Origin: Candidatus Heimdallarchaeota archaeon | GTDB taxonomy: Archaea; Asgardarchaeota; Heimdallarchaeia; Hodarchaeales; Hodarchaeaceae | Direction of reading: 5' to 3' | Length of the DNA stretch: 64,000 nucleotides | NCBI GenBank assembly: GCA_020353515.1 | Contig: CP070695.1 | Location: 1,335,637 to 1,399,636 of the forward strand | In this document: piece by piece, positions 42,301 through 51,507 of the stretch | Numbering within the stretch: position 1 is the stretch's first letter | Layout of the letters: every line of letters begins with the position of its first letter | Program-made: the position numbers and the translations under genes | The notes under the pieces: model-generated | Databases searched by the model: none | Seen by the model: the letters and a program-made list of their open reading frames with translations, nothing else | Told to the model about the DNA's origin: nothing

Positions 42301-43287
42301 ATGAAAGAAAACTTTATTAAAGCTAGTAACGCCCTTACACGATTAAATACTAGCGTATCAACCAATGCTCGAAGTGCTGCTGATATTACGATTAAAATTT
42401 ATACAAGATTCGAAGAAATCCGATATGTAAGTGAAACCATACCTGATTTTATTCTTCATCCTGACCAATCAATGTCCAATCTCAAATCGAGCGGTGAAAT
42501 TAGGGTTGCACAGCTACTTGCATCCATTCTCTGTGAACGAATAGCAGAGCAATCAATACGATTAGCAGAGGATCTTGATTTTGGTGAAGAGGGCCTAGAC
42601 ATTCGTGAAGAGATTCGTGAAATTAGAGAACAAATAACCAGATTGAATGAAGTTATCCAAGTTCAGAAGAAATTAGCTGATGGAGCTCCTGTTTCAACAG
42701 AAAACATTAAGAACTTGCAGAAAAAGTACGACGTACGAATTAAACAACTAGAACAAGAATTACTTAGAAAAGAAGGTCGTGCGTTGACTGTAACAGCTTT
42801 AGATGCTACAAAGAAACCCAAACTATTTGGAAAGGGAAAATTTGAGCAAACACTTGATGATTTAATTCTTGAATATGGAAAAAATCTTCGTGCAAGTTCT
42901 GGTGGTTATATTTCACTCGCAAACCTCTATACAGCATTAAAAAATCAAGTTCCTGATGTAAAATTTTCTACAAAAGACCTCGAAAAATCCTGTAAACGGT
43001 TAAAAAAACAGGCACTTATAGAAGGAGTCTCGAAAAGAGCAGGAGTAAAAATCATAGAATTTGTCCCTGTTGCTCTAGGGAGTGACGCGAGAAAAGTTTT
43101 CGATTTAGCAGTTAATAAGGGATATGTAACCTTGGAGGATGTTATATTGGGAACAAAATGGGATCAACAGCGTGTTGTTAGAGTTCTTGAGAGTCTAGTT
43201 GAGCAAAAAATAGCACGAAAAGTCTCGTCTCTTGATACAGGGGATCAATATTATTTTCCTGGATTATATGGAGATAATGATTGGTAG
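42301..43287 (+). CDS. ESCRT-II EAP30 (Vps22/Vps36)-like protein with N-terminal coiled coil
   Basis: Tandem winged helices GGYISLANLY...STKDLEKSCKRL and GYVTLEDV...WDQQRVVRVLESLV, ending YYFPGL. Confidence 0.8.
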   Translation: MKENFIKASNALTRLNTSVSTNARSAADITIKIYTRFEEIRYVSETIPDFILHPDQSMSNLKSSGEIRVAQLLASILCERIAEQSIRLAEDLDFGEEGLDIREEIREIREQITRLNEVIQVQKKLADGAPVSTENIKNLQKKYDVRIKQLEQELLRKEGRALTVTALDATKKPKLFGKGKFEQTLDDLILEYGKNLRASSGGYISLANLYTALKNQVPDVKFSTKDLEKSCKRLKKQALIEGVSKRAGVKIIEFVPVALGSDARKVFDLAVNKGYVTLEDVILGTKWDQQRVVRVLESLVEQKIARKVSSLDTGDQYYFPGLYGDNDW

Positions 43288-43297
43288 GTGAAAACTG

Positions 43298-44188
43298 ATG
43301 GCAGAAGTAGAGAAGTATGGTGGACTATTCCGCAGAATAGGCGATGCAGTGCATATTGGCACAAAAAAATTTAAAGGAAAAGCAATCTTGAGTTCAGATT
43401 TTGGATCAGAAATAGAAAGTTCTTTGATAAGTCGAATAAAATCAGAAGATTATGACAGTTTTAGGAAACATGATGGATTTATTGTGAAAGATCCGGAGAA
43501 CGCAATATTATTACAGTCAGGATCACTAGTGGGGGTTGCAGGAAGTGGCATCTATCAACTCGAGAAGAGTGCTAAACGACCTGGAAGCGAAATTATCTGG
43601 GTAACAAAGCGTGAGTTCATCGTCAAATGGGGATCACCTGGGGTATATACTTCTGATAATATTATAATAGGCTGTTATGGAATATCTCGTATGAGAGTTG
43701 TTAATCCCCGTAATTTTATTATGAATGTAGTTTCACATAAACAGTATTATTCAGGGAACGAACTAAAAAATTGGGTTAAACAAACAATTATTGCTGCAGT
43801 AAAACATGTTATGTCTCGCTATACCGTACCCGAATTACTTAAGGAACGTCGAAGCTTAGAAATCCAAACCAGATCAGAACTTGGACCTGAAACCTCTCGA
43901 TGGGGGCTAGAACTAGTTGGATTGGACATTGGGGGTTTTAAAGTTCCTGATGAATATCAGGCTCTATTATCTTATGAAATCGAAAAGCAAGTTCTGGAAC
44001 AACAACAGGAGTTAGCAGAGCAAAGAAAAGAGCTTGATGTTGTTGCGGAGAAAGTGAAGAAATACGAACAAATGCTTGAACAAGCAGATGAAATGTTTCT
44101 AAATGGGAAAATATCAGAGGAAAAGTATAAAGAACTAACAGATAAATACTCCAAGAAATTAGCTCAAATCAAAGCTCAAATGCAATAA
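43298..44188 (+). CDS. SPFH/band-7 domain protein with C-terminal coiled coil and short helical domain
   Basis: GIYQL, VKWG, YG...RVVNPRNF, WGLELVGLDI...VP.EY; tail FLNGKISEEKYKEL. Confidence 0.8.
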   Translation: MAEVEKYGGLFRRIGDAVHIGTKKFKGKAILSSDFGSEIESSLISRIKSEDYDSFRKHDGFIVKDPENAILLQSGSLVGVAGSGIYQLEKSAKRPGSEIIWVTKREFIVKWGSPGVYTSDNIIIGCYGISRMRVVNPRNFIMNVVSHKQYYSGNELKNWVKQTIIAAVKHVMSRYTVPELLKERRSLEIQTRSELGPETSRWGLELVGLDIGGFKVPDEYQALLSYEIEKQVLEQQQELAEQRKELDVVAEKVKKYEQMLEQADEMFLNGKISEEKYKELTDKYSKKLAQIKAQMQ

Positions 44189-44212: not shown

Positions 44213-45970
44213 TTATTGATGTTCTTCCAGATCTCCACCACATTCGGGGCAGAATACCATACCTACAGAGATCATTTCTTTGAAACAGTCTACACAGACG
44301 TTTACATCACATGATGGACACAAATATTTTGTTGTTTCTTCATGTGTGACTTCGCAGACACCACAGAGAAATTCTTCTTTCTGTTTAGCTATATGTAAAG
44401 TCATTTTTTGAATATTAATCCAGCCCTGAATCTTTCCATGAAGGATATGATTCTCCAATAAGGCTACAGTCTCTCTATCAGACCGATTTAATTTTTGAAT
44501 GATTTCTTGTAAGGGAATTTCTGCTTTAGGGGTCTGTTCAAGGTATTCAAGGAGAGTAGAGTCCAAATCAGGTTTTTTTGAATTGAAAATCTCGTATTCA
44601 GTCCATCCTAGTTTCAATGGACCTTTTTTACAGAAATGACACTCTTCTGTATCAAGTAAATTAAACGAATGAGTATAATTAACCATACAGTCAGGACAAT
44701 GCCTCGGGAGGTCAATAATAAAGGCAGAAATGTTTCCACAAAAAGGACATACATGTGTACTTCCTGTAGAACGGCAATTTGAGCACATAATTCGTCTACA
44801 GTTTTGACATTCGAAATAAAGATTAGGATCTGTATAAGAAGAAGTATCTACCTGACAAAAAATGTCAAAATGTTTCATTCCTTTAACTAAAAAAGGATCA
44901 GCAGTTTCTCCAGCTGTAAGTCGAAGTCCAAAAAGTCTTCCCAACTTGTGAAGACGATTTAAGAGCTTCAATGGGTCTAGATTCAGTGATGAAGCGAGGT
45001 TCTCAACCGCAATTCCTGTTTCAAACCAGTCTTTTAATGAGGGAGCTTGGAACTCCACTTCATTCAAAGTTCCCTTTAAGCTTCGATTTAAAAGCTGTAG
45101 TATATTTAAAAACTCAATCCTGTCTACATCAAGTCGATGAAGCCAGAATTCAATAGGAATATCTCGAAAGACGAATATATCTTTCAATACTTGGCTTATT
45201 ATGTCCATAGTGGGATATAAGTACTCATAATTGGCAGAAAAAATAATTTTCAGGTCTTCACGATTATTTTCTAGTAACTGAAGACAATTTTCTTTTGTTA
45301 GTCGTGTTAATTTGCTAATGTGCTTAAGTGAAACTTCTGATTCCAACAGAAAACTTGTATCTATATAGCGATTAAGTCTTTTGATATTTCTTTGTAAACC
45401 TGATGAAGAAGAGAAGTCTAAACTTGTAAAGTTGTGCAATCGCTGAGTTATGGGATCTATGTATCCAACAAAATGACCATCTTGGGCTAGAACCTCTAAG
45501 ATACCTTCAAAGTGATCCTCGGTCCAATACAATTTGTTTAAGAGAAATTTTAAGTTTAATGAGGTGACTGTACTTAGAATCTGTTTTAATTCAGCTTTGG
45601 CTCCTTGGAGTGTGTAGAATTTACGATGAATCTGATCAAAAAAACCATCAGTATTTTGAACATTGACTTTGATCAGGGTTTCTAGTAACTCACCAGGTAA
45701 GTTTGTTCTATCAATGACATCACAGATGTCTACATAACCCTTTGCTAATTTACGAGTAATATATTGCTGAATAAATATTAGAGGAATGAATTCCTTGTCA
45801 TCAAAACTAACAAAGCCATTTAATTCCTTTGAACCGATTTTTTTTCGCAGGAATGAAGCAACTTCACTTGGATTTTCTTTTGGAGCCATTTCACGCAATT
45901 TAATAGGAGTTTGTGCCATTTGAGCTTCTGTTAACCATTTTTGTCTCTTTCTCCCAAACATTAGTCTCAC
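44213..45970 (-). CDS. Winged-helix/PCI-repeat protein with RING-like Zn fingers (E3 ligase candidate)
   Basis: Repeated WH-like units; CxxC clusters at ~370-450; PCI-like HGKIQGWIN; terminal CGVC-CPSC-CVDC-CPEC. Confidence 0.7.
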   Translation of the reverse strand: MRLMFGRKRQKWLTEAQMAQTPIKLREMAPKENPSEVASFLRKKIGSKELNGFVSFDDKEFIPLIFIQQYITRKLAKGYVDICDVIDRTNLPGELLETLIKVNVQNTDGFFDQIHRKFYTLQGAKAELKQILSTVTSLNLKFLLNKLYWTEDHFEGILEVLAQDGHFVGYIDPITQRLHNFTSLDFSSSSGLQRNIKRLNRYIDTSFLLESEVSLKHISKLTRLTKENCLQLLENNREDLKIIFSANYEYLYPTMDIISQVLKDIFVFRDIPIEFWLHRLDVDRIEFLNILQLLNRSLKGTLNEVEFQAPSLKDWFETGIAVENLASSLNLDPLKLLNRLHKLGRLFGLRLTAGETADPFLVKGMKHFDIFCQVDTSSYTDPNLYFECQNCRRIMCSNCRSTGSTHVCPFCGNISAFIIDLPRHCPDCMVNYTHSFNLLDTEECHFCKKGPLKLGWTEYEIFNSKKPDLDSTLLEYLEQTPKAEIPLQEIIQKLNRSDRETVALLENHILHGKIQGWINIQKMTLHIAKQKEEFLCGVCEVTHEETTKYLCPSCDVNVCVDCFKEMISVGMVFCPECGGDLEEHQ

Positions 45971-46105: not shown

Positions 46106-46420
46106 TTGGCTCTGAATAAGATTAAGTGTTCAAACTGCGGATATATTCCACGAGATCTCCCCGTTTCTGGGAGTTGGTATTGCCCTAAGTGTGGAAAACG
46201 CACGGTTATTCCCCAACACCGTCCACGACCTACTCGGAAATATTACAAAAAACCTACAACCACTCCCAAATCACGAGACCGAATAAGCACAAGCCTTTAT
46301 GATAAATTGACTTATGATAAACCCACAGATCATGGTTTCAAAGAACCTTATATTAACCCGAAAATCAATCCAATAATCCCGAAAAGGAGAGACAAAATCC
46401 GACTGTTCTTCAAAAAGTAA
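46106..46420 (+). CDS. Small Zn-ribbon protein with basic tail
   Basis: CSNCG ... WYCPKCG. Confidence 0.6.
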   Translation: MALNKIKCSNCGYIPRDLPVSGSWYCPKCGKRTVIPQHRPRPTRKYYKKPTTTPKSRDRISTSLYDKLTYDKPTDHGFKEPYINPKINPIIPKRRDKIRLFFKK

Positions 46421-46434
46421 TTTGTTTTCTTCTT

Positions 46435-47661
46435 TCAATCTCGAAATTTTATTTCTAGCCTGATTTCCTCATCATCAGCTATAGAACTTAGAGTGATCCT
46501 ATCACCATCAGAAATGATCTTTTGGACAGATTCATCTTCAGGTAGAAGGAAATTTCCTCGGAACCCAATATATTCTTTTTTATATTCTTGGCGAATGATA
46601 TCAATAACAGATTTAAAAAGTAACTCACGATCTACAGTTATAGTTCGTTCAACGTGCTTTACGGTATTGGATTGACCACATACCAAGCAATTTGGATCAG
46701 GAACCAGATCAAACGTATTTAAAGTTCCTGTTAAAGCTGAATAAACTGTAAAATGCGGGATACGAAATCTATGAGCTTCAATTAAATTATTCAGTGTGAC
46801 TGTTTCTTTGAGGAATTCTTTTTTCTCTAAAAAGAGAGCTTTCACGATTTCTTGTGATTGTATACCACTTGTCACCGCATTGACAGTGATTAAACTAGGT
46901 ACATGAAAAAGAATCAATTGTAAAAGCTCTTTCTTTTTAAAATCTCCAAAATTATGTTTTTTGGCACAAGTATTGGCTAATTTTGTGAGCTCAACAATAT
47001 CTTCAGGTGAGGTTTCGACAGGCTCCCTTTCATACTTTGCGTTAAATTCATAAAGAGCTTTCCAAGCACAGTGTTCTCTCACACGAGGAACTCCTACTAA
47101 AGTACAAGGAGCTGTTAAAACTCGAGTCTCATCTGGTGGTGGAGGTGTTTCGCATGCTAAACATGCTGTTTTGCTTGTTTTTATGTATTGGATTTGACCA
47201 AAATACCCATCAGTTGCTGAATCAATCAATGGAATCTTCAATTCTATTGCCATTGCGTTGAGATATTGTCGTGCCAGAAAGTTATCGACACAGCCAGCAA
47301 TTATGTCTACTTCTTGGAAAATTTTCTGGGGAATATTTTGTAATTTATCTGCGTATTCTTTAATCATGATGTCAGGATTAAATTGTTCTTTTATCCTTTT
47401 TTTGGCAATTTTTGCCTTTTTCTGACCAACATCTTCCTCCCTGAATAACATCTGCCGATTTAAATTTGAAAATTCAACAGTGTCATCATCGACTAGAATC
47501 AGACTACCAATACCTAAAAGAGCTAGATTTTTGGCTAGTTCACTGCCTGTTCCTCCCACGCCTGCAATTAAAATTGTACTTTTTTCAATGATATGTTGAT
47601 CCCAAAGAGCTAGTCGTTCCTGCCGATCATATTTAGAAGAAGAAGGAAGATCTCGTGTCAT
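46435..47661 (-). CDS. Ubiquitin-like activating enzyme E1 (eukaryote-like, UBA3/UBA2-type architecture)
   Basis: YDRQ, GVGGTG, DDDTVEFSNLNRQ, CVDN, CLAC, catalytic PCT...PR..EHC, CLVC, probable C-terminal ubiquitin-fold domain. Confidence 0.92.
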   Translation of the reverse strand: MTRDLPSSSKYDRQERLALWDQHIIEKSTILIAGVGGTGSELAKNLALLGIGSLILVDDDTVEFSNLNRQMLFREEDVGQKKAKIAKKRIKEQFNPDIMIKEYADKLQNIPQKIFQEVDIIAGCVDNFLARQYLNAMAIELKIPLIDSATDGYFGQIQYIKTSKTACLACETPPPPDETRVLTAPCTLVGVPRVREHCAWKALYEFNAKYEREPVETSPEDIVELTKLANTCAKKHNFGDFKKKELLQLILFHVPSLITVNAVTSGIQSQEIVKALFLEKKEFLKETVTLNNLIEAHRFRIPHFTVYSALTGTLNTFDLVPDPNCLVCGQSNTVKHVERTITVDRELLFKSVIDIIRQEYKKEYIGFRGNFLLPEDESVQKIISDGDRITLSSIADDEEIRLEIKFRD

Positions 47662-47699: not shown

Positions 47700-48020
47700 T
47701 TATCCTCCTTTAATTTGATCTGGAACTATCATAAGAATTGCATTTTGTTCTATTCCATAGGAAGCGAGGTTATTTGAAGGATTCATTCTTCTTCCTTTGA
47801 ATAATAAAGCGATTGGGACAACCTCTGGGATATTAAAGGCATCACGAGCCGCTGTGATAGCCTGGAAAACAGTTCCATTAATATTAATATATTTCTCCCG
47901 AATATTCTGATCTGGAGGAAGCTGTGGATCTTTAAAACGAACCTTAATCATTTTCTCAATGCCATCGTCAGGACCTTTACCTGTAGAACTAGAATCCCAA
48001 ACAACATCCTTTTTACTCAT
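47700..48020 (-). CDS. Ubiquitin-like modifier ending in GG, UFM1-like sequence features
   Basis: Beta-grasp pattern (LLFKGRRM..., LASYGI), terminal GG, directly upstream of E1. Confidence 0.88.
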   Translation of the reverse strand: MSKKDVVWDSSSTGKGPDDGIEKMIKVRFKDPQLPPDQNIREKYININGTVFQAITAARDAFNIPEVVPIALLFKGRRMNPSNNLASYGIEQNAILMIVPDQIKGG

Positions 48021-48040: not shown

Positions 48041-48829
48041 TTAAGTATAAAACTTTCGTTCAATTTCTGAGAGTGTAGTAAGAATATCAATTCTTCCTTT
48101 AGCATAATCTTCTAAAGATCCTCGAATAAGCGGATATTTTGTAAGAATTTCATTTTCAAGACCTATGGGGAGATTCTTCTTTCTTTTAATAGTAAAGATT
48201 ATTACTTCGCCATCTTGGGCATAAAACCTTACAGTAATCTCTTTCTTCGACGCTGATGCGTCATAATTAGAAAGAATTTGACGTATGAGAGGATCACGTT
48301 CTTCTTGAGTAGCAGGAACCTCTGCTATGGAAACGGGCTCTCCCATAACTTGGGGCATTCTTTCAGCAGTTTTTTGATGAATCTCTTCTAAAACATCTAA
48401 AATTGTACTAGAACCAGGTGACCAGTTTCTCATATTATCTAAATCATTGATTTCACAATCTAAAACTTCTCGGAGCTTAGCAGGGCCATCAATATAGGGT
48501 CGGTCAGGTAAATCATCTAACACAATTAAAAGAGGGAATGCATATTCATTGACTTGCATCTTGATTCGTATTTTCCCTACTTCATCCCCAATAAATTCCC
48601 CTGGAAAGTTTTCAAGTAATTTTTGTGATTCTTGATAGATGAGATAGTAACTCTCCGCTTCTTCCGCTTCATCCAGTGCTTTAGCTTCTGTTGGTGTAAT
48701 AGCTGTTCGTTTTAAGTAATTTGAAAGATCACAGTATTCACACTTTACAGGATGTTGGAATGTTGGGCGTACTTGAAGTGGAGCTCCACAACCGCTACAT
48801 TGGGAAACATCGGTTTGGGTATCAGCCAT
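48041..48829 (-). CDS. Zn-ribbon plus probable catalytically inactive UBC/RWD-like domain protein
   Basis: CSGCG...CEYC; LIVLDDLPDRPYI and NWSPGSSTILDVLEEI resemble the UBC-fold YP..PP and W.P...I..VL..I elements; first gene of Ubl-E1 operon. Confidence 0.55.
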   Translation of the reverse strand: MADTQTDVSQCSGCGAPLQVRPTFQHPVKCEYCDLSNYLKRTAITPTEAKALDEAEEAESYYLIYQESQKLLENFPGEFIGDEVGKIRIKMQVNEYAFPLLIVLDDLPDRPYIDGPAKLREVLDCEINDLDNMRNWSPGSSTILDVLEEIHQKTAERMPQVMGEPVSIAEVPATQEERDPLIRQILSNYDASASKKEITVRFYAQDGEVIIFTIKRKKNLPIGLENEILTKYPLIRGSLEDYAKGRIDILTTLSEIERKFYT

Positions 48830-49467: not shown

Positions 49468-50019
49468 TTGCAGGATCTTCACTCAAGACGATTACGAGAA
49501 GAATTTAAGAGAATGCTAAAGACATATCCTCCGAAAACAAGTCATATCAAGTGGGTTATTGTTAACAATGATCTACATCATTATAAAGCTACAATTAAGG
49601 GAAAAAAAGACACTCCTTATGACGGGGGTGAGTTCGAGATCACTATCGATCTCCCTCCTGAATATCCCTTTAAACCACCGATTTGCAACTTTATAACCCC
49701 TATCTATCACCCCAATATTGCAATTGGTAAAACACAATGGAAATGGGGCTCCAATGTCTGTTTAAGTCTTGTTAATTGGAATAATCTAGGAAAACCTGGT
49801 GGATGGAAGGAAACAATCACCTTACCTAGTGTATTTGAACATATTGAAATGATGCTGGATGTGTATCAGGCAACTGGAGATGTTGATTTTCCAGAATATC
49901 TTGTTGATCCCAATGATCCTTTTAATCCTGAAGCTGGAGAGGCTATGAGACAAAATTTTGATAATTTCTGGGACACAGCTGAAGAATGGACTAAAAAGCA
50001 CGCACTTCTTATCGAATAG
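49468..50019 (+). CDS. Ubiquitin-conjugating enzyme E2
   Basis: RRLREE, G..DTPYDGGEF, YPFKPP, IYHPNI, catalytic VCLSL, W..TI. Confidence 0.95.
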   Translation: MQDLHSRRLREEFKRMLKTYPPKTSHIKWVIVNNDLHHYKATIKGKKDTPYDGGEFEITIDLPPEYPFKPPICNFITPIYHPNIAIGKTQWKWGSNVCLSLVNWNNLGKPGGWKETITLPSVFEHIEMMLDVYQATGDVDFPEYLVDPNDPFNPEAGEAMRQNFDNFWDTAEEWTKKHALLIE

Positions 50020-50035
50020 GCATTGTGAGTGCACT

Positions 50036-50536
50036 ATGTCTGAAATTGAAGATCTATCTATCCCTTCATCCCCTAAAGTCAAATCAGTTACTCTTATGGG
50101 AGCACTACTTGATGAAATGACCAAATATTCGAAGGAGGCTATGCCTAAGGAAGCCATTGGCCTTCTAGGCGGAAAAGAACTCCGGACTGATGAACTAATA
50201 TTATCTAGTATTCTCTTTGTTACGGAGGGTGACGAAGTTTCTGTTTCCTTTTCTGATGAGGATTTTAAAGCTTTTGAAGACATCTTAGAGAATGATTGTT
50301 ATTGTTTGGGATGGTGGCATTCTCACCCTGGATACGGCTTGTTTTTATCTCAAACGGATATTAAGACTCATATATACTCTTTTCAGCTACATAATGAACT
50401 TTCTGTTGCGTTAGTAGTTGAACCTACAAAGATCGATATGAATGGCCGCGCATCTTTCCAATTTTATCAAGTTATTCGTGAAAAAGGGAGTAATTCCTTC
50501 AAATATCAGGAAATTGCAAGTTATATTCAACCTTAA
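50036..50536 (+). CDS. JAMM/MPN+ isopeptidase (Rpn11/AMSH-like)
   Basis: EAIGLLGG and GWWHSHPGYGLFLSQTD (complete E-HxH-S-D motif); start taken at MSEIE. Confidence 0.93.
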   Translation: MSEIEDLSIPSSPKVKSVTLMGALLDEMTKYSKEAMPKEAIGLLGGKELRTDELILSSILFVTEGDEVSVSFSDEDFKAFEDILENDCYCLGWWHSHPGYGLFLSQTDIKTHIYSFQLHNELSVALVVEPTKIDMNGRASFQFYQVIREKGSNSFKYQEIASYIQP

Positions 50537-50706: not shown

Positions 50707-51507
50707 ATGAGTTCGATGATGTCAGCCTTGGATCTTTTCAGACTTCCTCTCAAATATTCCACTCGTATTTTTCTCCAAAATGGATATGGGATAATAGATT
50801 ATATCGTGTTGTTTTTGGGTCCAGGGACTGTTTTATTCTTTACTTTCTACCTATTATGGTCTGGACGACGAAAAAATCAAAAAATTATGGATTTAGCGAG
50901 AGAGGCTTTACTCGAAGTCTTTGCAGAGGAATTTGATGATCTCGTTATGGAAGAGAAGAGTTCAAATGGAGGTTTACTCATTCCAAAGTATAAGAAATCA
51001 CAAACCTTATCATTCAAGGATTTTCGAGTGGTTTTTGCTTTGGAAGAAAGACATCTTATGCTTTCAGTCATCATTTCTTGGTTTGCAGGGGTAAATGATT
51101 ACATTGCCTTGGAAGCTAACGCTAAGAAAGGAAAAATCCCTACAAAAATTCAGATTATTCCGAAAAATGAAGAAGGCCAAATCAAGAAACATCAAGAACT
51201 CTTATTTAAACTCGAGGAAATTGAACTCGGTATAAAACAATTAGATGAGTTTTTCTTATTGAAAGCAACTTCTCAACGAGCGGGGACATATTTTCTCGGG
51301 GATAAGAATCTATTGAGATTGCTTCACAATATACGAAAAGTTGTCGTCCGAATATCAATCAATTCTGCTGAAGATCCCTCCATTCGTATCTATGCAAGGA
51401 TCAACGAAGATCTAAGTCTTGAAAAGGTGCAAGAATTCTTCCTTGCATTATGTGAGCGCGTAAATGAGGTCTCTGAGAAAGTAGTCATGAAGAAGAAACG
51501 GCCTTAG
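50707..51507 (+). CDS. CCDC47/DUF1682-like (PAT complex) single-pass membrane protein
   Basis: TM followed by SGRRKNQKI; later ALEERHLMLSVIISWF; same layout as CCDC47 G..KN..IA and L..RQD segments. Confidence 0.6.
   Translation: MSSMMSALDLFRLPLKYSTRIFLQNGYGIIDYIVLFLGPGTVLFFTFYLLWSGRRKNQKIMDLAREALLEVFAEEFDDLVMEEKSSNGGLLIPKYKKSQTLSFKDFRVVFALEERHLMLSVIISWFAGVNDYIALEANAKKGKIPTKIQIIPKNEEGQIKKHQELLFKLEEIELGIKQLDEFFLLKATSQRAGTYFLGDKNLLRLLHNIRKVVVRISINSAEDPSIRIYARINEDLSLEKVQEFFLALCERVNEVSEKVVMKKKRP

Follow-up and report, generated by a model that had tools for sequence, protein, structure and literature searches.

The locus described here raises the question of what a protein built from UFL1-like winged helices and zinc fingers does beside the genes of a ubiquitin-like conjugation pathway. 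The window analysed is a stretch of 64,000 nucleotides from Candidatus Heimdallarchaeota archaeon (order Hodarchaeales; assembly GCA_020353515.1, contig CP070695.1, positions 1,335,637 to 1,399,636), and the gene in question, here called the E3-type gene, occupies positions 44213–45970 on the reverse strand. We put at roughly 55% the probability that it encodes the scaffold ligase (E3) of a Hodarchaeales ubiquitin-like conjugation cluster, ligase activity being a prediction. This reading draws on the homology of its winged-helix array to that of UFL1, on two paralogous zinc fingers, and on conserved synteny with genes for an activating enzyme (E1) and a conjugating enzyme (E2) of the ubiquitin type.

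An AlphaFold2 model of the protein, built from a 24-sequence alignment (predicted local distance difference test (pLDDT) 86.7, predicted template modelling score 0.74), is composed of an N-terminal helix (residues 2–18) within the first winged helix (WH; residues 1–63), five further WHs (residues 64–120, 121–180, 192–253, 254–310 and 311–366), a Cys-rich region (residues 369–460) and a seventh WH, followed by a terminal zinc finger. The N-terminal helix and six tandem PCI-like WHs (residues 4–366) are encoded by positions 44873–45961 on the reverse strand, and WH7 (residues 466–529) by positions 44384–44575 on the same strand. WH7 is of the PCI type, matching PCI (PF01399) at residues 473–527 with 24.4 bits against a Pfam cut-off of 22, and structural searches suggest a likeness to the WH of DDRGK1. 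By sequence the WH units are barely alike, only the pair WH3 and WH7 giving a clear match (hhalign 85%, E 6.5e-6).

Distant homology between this array and the WH array of UFL1 is well supported. When the family profile was compared with all PDB sequences, human UFL1 provided the four best matches (E 2e-6 to 2e-5), the only ones below 0.01, while Foldseek placed UFL1 chains on top at 5e-10 to 1e-7, followed by SelB at 2e-5. Collinear alignments spanning several WHs were obtained by VIA with UFL1 only. The family is also linked by hhalign (92%, E 6.6e-7, 165 columns) to an Asgard protein with the architecture DDRGK+E3_UFM1_ligase+PCI+VPS28, which itself passes PF09743 (E3_UFM1_ligase; Pfam 4e-14). 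The initial annotation had described the N-terminal part as a repeated UFL1-like unit followed by a Cys-rich cross-brace-like cluster, a zinc ribbon, a PCI-type WH and a terminal eight-Cys finger, and this domain order holds throughout: the repeats are structural ones, the six consecutive WHs plus the seventh, and the unit that it quoted corresponds to the segment aligned by HMMER to human UFL1 residues ~35–118 and 123–233.

The open reading frame (ORF) itself is genuine. It runs for 585 codons from a GTG at 45970 with no internal stop, ending at the stop codon 44213–44215, and has 66 mostly full-length homologues as well as a database record that is 100% identical over 582 residues. Because the homologues begin at MFGRK, three codons into the ORF, and the identical record has 582 residues, the true start is probably the ATG at 45961, giving a protein of 582 residues. 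The 66 relatives, found by a word-indexed search of 5.8 billion proteins, are 34–82% identical and nearly all 575–591 residues long; they carry the labels Hodarchaeales, Heimdallarchaeota or Promethearchaeota and are always annotated as 'hypothetical' or 'DC1 domain-containing', a description that the UFL1-like, finger-bearing assignment corrects. The gene is present as a single copy in the source genome, which is 96% complete and assembled as a single 4.94-Mb contig. It was found in 20 of 20 genomes of its own family and in one of two from the sister family; in 300 other genomes of the phylum the only matches were weak ones to other UFL1-like architectures. An exhaustive profile search of 1.84 billion representative proteins recovered just 21 at E<=1e-3, namely proteins of the same architecture (548–596 residues) and Asgard fusions that pass PF09743 (DDRGK+E3_UFM1_ligase+PCI+VPS28 and HEAT+E3_UFM1). 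A six-frame PF09743 search of the source genome gave no match at E<=1, which we ascribe to the E3-type protein being too divergent for detection at that scale.

Human UFL1 contains an N-terminal helix, a partial WH (pWH) that UFBP1/DDRGK1 completes in trans, a further five WHs and a C-terminal region that is helical, and it has no RING (Peter et al. 2022, PMC9627666), in agreement with the initial description of the eukaryotic protein as a RING-less scaffold E3. The archaeal protein reproduces much of this plan (PF09743/IPR018611; PDB 8ohd, 8qfc, 8c0d, 8b9x): its N-terminal helix and six PCI-like WHs parallel the composite pWH and five WHs of UFL1, the extra WH7 may recall the WH of DDRGK1/UFBP1, and a scaffold role beside the E1/E2/Ubl set (Ubl, ubiquitin-like modifier) is presumed for it. 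It departs from UFL1 in other respects. Its first WH is complete in cis by structural alignment (1j5y) rather than completed in trans by DDRGK1; the helical C-terminal region is replaced, over residues 366–585, by finger 1, a zinc ribbon, a WH and finger 2; and the partners encoded alongside it are a ubiquitin-type E1 and an HPN-containing UBC E2 rather than UBA5 and UFC1, the E2 served by human UFL1, which lacks HPN (Peter et al. 2022, PMC9627666).

The resemblance to UFL1 also bears on a different function, that of a ribosome-associated UFL1-like factor whose WH array would sit on the large subunit and direct the Ubl to a ribosomal protein in translation or membrane quality control. In structure, the array has specific relatives only among UFL1 chains from 60S ribosome complexes (8qfc, 8ohd, 9gy4), and the cluster lies between the gene for threonyl-tRNA synthetase (ThrRS) and the S27e-eIF2alpha-Nop10 genes. 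However, the ribosome-binding C-terminal region of UFL1 is absent and the fingers stand in its place, and ThrRS and S27e-eIF2alpha-Nop10 belong to a widespread archaeal gene group with no evident functional tie to the cluster, so that we consider a ribosomal role quite unlikely.

The region that replaces the UFL1 C-terminus is encoded on the reverse strand and contains two eight-ligand fingers of the cross-brace type separated by the C4 zinc ribbon and WH7. Finger 1 (residues 369–415, positions 44726–44866) has the pattern C-x2-D-x12-C-x2-C-x4-C-x2-C-x8-C-P-x-C, its ligands being C372, D375, C388, C391, C396, C399, C408 and C411, with Asp as the second ligand. Finger 2 (residues 533–581, positions 44228–44374) follows C-x2-C-x11-C-x2-C-x4-C-x2-C-x11-C-P-x-C with a beta-beta-alpha fold and ligands C536, C539, C551, C554, C559, C562, C574 and C577, and the ribbon (residues 421–450, positions 44621–44710) has C425, C428, C444 and C447. 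The ligands of all three units are invariant in the 24 sequences except for C539, which is Asp in two divergent members, so that finger 2 of these two has the same second ligand as finger 1. Finger 1 is nearly invariant, and together with the ribbon it forms the most conserved part of the protein. Profile comparison identifies the two fingers as paralogues (hhalign 84%, E 7.4e-6), with each of the eight ligands of one aligned to its equivalent in the other, and MAFFT independently places them in the same register; the ribbon showed no similarity to either finger in the same type of comparison. In the DSSP assignment of the AlphaFold2 model both fingers are strand-strand-helix, with the helix beginning at ligands 5/6. 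Finger 2 is modelled with pLDDT ~84–90 in the full-length protein and ~90 in an isolated model of the C-terminal half, in which the central zinc region folds poorly (pLDDT ~50). Fingers and ribbon are predicted to bind zinc, and the putative cross-brace pairing of the fingers is proposed from their spacing, topology and analogy.

In both fingers a hydrophobic residue precedes ligand 2, and ligands 7–8 lie in a C-P-x-C motif. This hydrophobic residue and the Pro after ligand 7 are E2-contact positions in RING–E2 structures. The spacing of finger 2 presumably resembles the C4C4 RING-type patterns of CNOT4 and cellulose synthase, which we take as a lead only. Matches of RING type stayed below threshold (BRE1, UHRF1, MAT1, RNF31, NOT4, TRIM32/56, p44 and CesA, E 0.007–0.2, the best being those to BRE1, UHRF1, MAT1, NOT4 and TRIM at 0.007–0.07), Pfam ZZ was matched weakly and below threshold in 3 of the 24 members (best E 0.0047), and Foldseek with the C-terminal model returned the TRIM37 RING, the p62 ZZ domain and Nse1 at E 0.015–0.06, with a template modelling score of 0.72, by target, for p62 ZZ. 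Compared with C4C4 RING-type fingers (CNOT4, TFIIH p44/Ssl1, cellulose synthase) and with ZZ/KKT2 fingers, the archaeal units have the x2-x11-x2-x4-x2-x11-x2 spacing, the beta-beta-alpha topology and a final ligand pair of the form C-P-x-C; they differ in giving no significant match, in the use of Asp as second ligand by finger 1 and in having no linchpin after ligand 8. The fingers are therefore best described as RING/ZZ/p44-type cross-brace units, with true RING status as one hypothesis that the sequence and fold data do not separate from the others. The part of the initial annotation that called them RING-like thus stands for the eight ligands, the cross-brace spacing and the beta-beta-alpha fold, and a RING cannot be called over a ZZ, p44 or KKT2 type. 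An RBR-like (RING1-IBR-RING2) reading, raised by sub-threshold HOIP/HOIL and IBR matches, is rejected for now because the fingers are paralogues of the cross-brace type and no Cys stood out as a candidate for catalysis. The SMC5/6 kite subunit Nse1 likewise carries tandem WHs and a variant RING in one chain (Foldseek 5hvq_C and 7dg2_A, 135–150 columns, E 0.015–0.03); this match is weak, however, the archaeal gene has no SMC or kleisin context, and the RING of Nse1 is reported to be a eukaryotic addition (10.1101/2024.01.07.573240).

The E3-type gene is adjacent to genes for an E1, a Ubl and an E2, as the initial annotation had stated of the E1 and Ubl. The E1 (positions 46435–47661, reverse strand, 408 residues) has a ThiF fold (Pfam ThiF 2e-55) and is nearest to the adenylation domains of UBA1, SAE2 and UBA3 (PDB UBA1 2.8e-38 versus UBA5 6e-17). 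The E2 (positions 49468–50019, forward strand) shows a canonical UBC fold with an HPN motif and catalytic Cys C98 (Pfam UQ_con 9e-25), and its best PDB matches are UBE2K/UBE2D (6e-24). It is 50–81% identical across the family and better conserved than the E3. About seven extra residues lie between its HPN and the catalytic Cys, and this W-K-W-G-S-N insertion is nearly invariant in 17 orthologues. By these closest matches the E1 and E2 of the cluster are ubiquitin-type and not UFM1-type. PF08694 (UFC1), PF03671 (Ufm1) and the DDRGK family (PF09756) gave no match over cut-off in the source genome.

The Ubl (positions 47700–48020, reverse strand) has 106 residues and ends in GG with no extension or propeptide. 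Its C-terminal half is ubiquitin-like. The protein has an N-terminal extension of ~20 residues with a conserved D-V-x-W-D-S motif, and it is 73–92% identical across loci whose E3s share only 35–62%. A UFM1 orthologue was considered and set aside, though it is kept as a lead: mouse Ufm1 (1j0g) matches the full-length protein at E 0.53, PF03671 remains under its cut-off, and the ubiquitin-like half scores better. The archaeal modifier differs from UFM1 in its GG terminus and in its closer match to ubiquitin than to Ufm1. A further component, a JAB/MPN protease (positions 49958–50536, forward strand; Pfam JAB 8e-11), is listed with a TTG start at 49958 that makes it overlap the end of the E2 gene by 62 nucleotides (49958–50019); because the two genes are separate in related loci, the true start probably lies further downstream.

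With these components the scaffold-E3 reading predicts the following pathway. The ubiquitin-type E1 would load the UBC E2, with its HPN motif and Cys, with the GG-ended Ubl, and the scaffold would engage this charged E2 by way of a finger, the N-terminal helix or the two together. The WH array would hold the substrate or partners, possibly the ESCRT-II-like/SPFH pair described below, so that the Ubl could pass straight from the E2 to a lysine, as for RING and UFL1 scaffold E3s, and the JAB protease would reverse the modification.

Modelling the protein with the E2, a check put forward in the initial annotation, lends weak support to E2 binding. The predicted complex, made from the full-length and E2 alignments, scored 0.37 and the best of three controls 0.01, with at least 70% of contacts agreeing between runs and a partner pLDDT of at least 77. 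Of 80 solved complexes 58 reach the mark that it passed, as do 2 of 110 mismatched pairs; at a score <=0.60 this holds for just 7 of the 80 and for both of the passing mismatches, and since we used our own alignments these benchmark counts apply only roughly. The pass may also reflect likeness rather than binding, because RING–E2 complexes have already been solved.

The order of genes in the window is EAP30/Vps22-36-like, SPFH, E3, a small zinc-ribbon ORF, E1, Ubl, a 262-residue zinc-ribbon protein, E2, JAB, a 266-residue protein, two Arf-like GTPases and ThrRS. This order (ThrRS-Arf-Arf-unknown-JAB-E2-unknown-Ubl-E1-(small zinc-ribbon ORF)-E3-SPFH-EAP30) is kept in four related loci whose E3s are 35–62% identical, the small ORF being called in three of the four. 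The genes for the ESCRT-II-like EAP30 (Vps22/36) protein and the SPFH/Band 7 protein (positions 42301–44188, forward strand) converge on the E3-type gene and are the pair most persistently linked to it, adjoining it in loci L001–L003 and in the distant locus L006 (L006:5124-8767). This linkage, which is kept even without E1, Ubl and E2 alongside, suggests that EAP30, SPFH and the E3 form a functional triad.

More distantly, a contig labelled Thorarchaeota (L007:1653-5242) carries two divergent paralogues of the family, arranged head to head next to a JAB gene and a UBC E2 gene. One, of 618 residues, has the full architecture with both fingers (hhalign 100%, E 6e-60), and the other, of 548 residues, has no finger 2. 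This recurrence argues against a nucleic-acid-binding regulator that would use its winged helices and zinc fingers to control the cluster and have no part in conjugation: a conserved link to E2 and JAB in two distant lineages points to a role in the pathway. The zinc-ribbon matches are generic and would suit such a regulator; yet the WHs are of the PCI type, which binds protein, the array is collinear only with UFL1, and seven WHs in 580 residues with two cross-brace fingers is the layout of no known regulator. We regard a regulatory function as highly improbable.

Several results weigh against the E3 reading. For UFL1 homology, PF09743 scores 16.1–18.3 bits, under its 23.2-bit cut-off (14 of the 24 family members match it at E<0.1, the best at 1.9e-6), and the profile search of 1.84 billion proteins recovered no eukaryotic UFL1 at E<=1e-3. 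For the fingers, neither reaches the Pfam RING thresholds, the best matches scattering over DC1, B-box, ZZ, zf-UDP and RING_4/5, and a Gly follows ligand 8 in both. Many active RINGs have an Arg/Lys/Asn 'linchpin' after ligand 8. Within the PDB the finger profile finds its closest match in the KKT2 finger (E 0.002), which is not a RING, and the ZZ domains of dystrobrevin, PRT1, HERC2 and CBP (E 0.009–0.2) score like RINGs. The complex prediction is weak and was returned with no reported interface, and in L006 the E3-type gene lies with EAP30 and SPFH and has no E1 or E2 nearby.

Part of this would suit a non-catalytic adaptor or receptor, in which fingers of the ZZ/KKT2/NZF type would bind a peptide, an N-terminus or the Ubl, and the WH array would dock on the ESCRT-II-like/SPFH pair, so that the protein would recognise or direct cargo bearing the Ubl and not itself ligate it. 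The KKT2 finger is reported to bind the free N-terminus of H3 (2026 preprint), the ZZ domains give scores on a par with those of RINGs, EAP30, SPFH and the E3 stay together even with no E1 or E2 next to them, and ESCRT-II subunits are themselves tandem-WH proteins (PMC9192718). The array is nevertheless far nearer to UFL1 than to Vps25 (Foldseek 5e-10 versus 0.064), and no other E3 candidate is present in the cluster. In addition, the C-P-x-C and the hydrophobic residue ahead of ligand 2 agree with the E2-contact positions of RINGs, and the E2 complex prediction (0.37 versus 0.01) argues, weakly, in the same direction. An adaptor role is the main alternative, to which we attach a minor but real chance. 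Membership of ESCRT-II itself was rejected, as the E3-type protein has no similarity to the neighbouring EAP30 protein.

Part of what the scaffold-E3 reading implies was already known. The E3 of Asgard ubiquitin-ESCRT clusters has been defined by IPR018611, the E3 UFM1 ligase entry (Hatano et al. 2022, PMC9192718), E3-UFM1-ligase modules occur in shuffled Asgard fusions (Liu et al. 2020 preprint, 10.1101/2020.10.19.343400), UFL1 and DDRGK1 have been traced to Asgard archaea and proposed to be older than UFM1, with another job (Picchianti et al. 2023), and Ufm1 homologues have been reported in Asgards (Köstlbacher et al. 2026). The initial claim of a novel E3 architecture is thus sustained for the finger-bearing form only, a UFL1-like E3 beside E1, ubiquitin and E2 in Asgards having been known since at least 2022 (Hatano 2022; Picchianti 2023); the novelty is the finger-bearing architecture and not the presence of a UFL1-like E3 in an Asgard ubiquitin-ESCRT cluster. 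Literature searches found no description of this architecture, which is not proof that there is none. The Asgard E3 UFM1 ligase-like proteins (DDRGK+E3_UFM1+PCI+VPS28 and HEAT+E3_UFM1) share with the E3-type family the UFL1-like WH module, the phylum and the association with ubiquitin and ESCRT, but they carry Vps28, DDRGK or HEAT/adaptin and no fingers, whereas the E3-type family has two cross-brace fingers and a zinc ribbon.

The initial annotation suggested that this form may be ancestral, which is speculative; among Asgards, UFL1-like arrays are found in several shuffled architectures. One speculative and, in our estimation, doubtful origin for UFL1 is a scenario in which the UFL1/DDRGK1 WH scaffold would have begun in a finger-bearing RING-like E3 of a ubiquitin-type system linked to ESCRT-II/SPFH, in the Asgard lineage nearest eukaryotes, and UFL1 would then have lost the fingers, split off DDRGK1 and been re-assigned to UFC1/UFM1. 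Were this so, the E3-type protein would offer a working model of pre-UFM1 UFL1 function and a natural hybrid, in one chain, of the WH/N-helix and RING scaffold-E3 mechanisms. No E3 other than UFL1 is known for UFM1, and the E3-type family is a concrete candidate for its proposed pre-UFM1 job. The gene is universal in the sampled Hodarchaeales family and lies within a complete, compact ubiquitin-type cassette whose components (E1, E2, Ubl, JAB and E3) are all small enough for reconstitution in vitro; the cassette bears on whether a canonical UBC E2 can work with a scaffold of the UFL1 type, on the putative RING function of the fingers and on the targets of the ubiquitin system in the closest relatives of eukaryotes.

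Further proteins are encoded within the conserved gene order. Directly upstream of the Ubl, the 262-residue protein (positions 48041–48829, reverse strand) has an N-terminal C4 zinc ribbon and is found at each of the related loci; Pfam, NCBIfam and PDB searches gave no match for it, and a UBC/UEV-like identity was rejected (hhalign probability 0.2% against the E2 profile, with no Pfam or PDB support). Between the E1 and E3 genes, on the opposite strand, the small ORF at positions 46106–46420 (forward strand) encodes 104 residues, with a double CxxC zinc ribbon at the N terminus and a basic tail rich in Pro and Lys; an ORF of 105–110 residues is called in the same position in L001 and L002 but not in L003. 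The ORF for the 266-residue protein (positions 50707–51507, forward strand) lies between JAB and the two Arf-like GTPase genes; it has no Pfam match, and an ORF of comparable length (253–286 residues) is called in this position in all four related loci.

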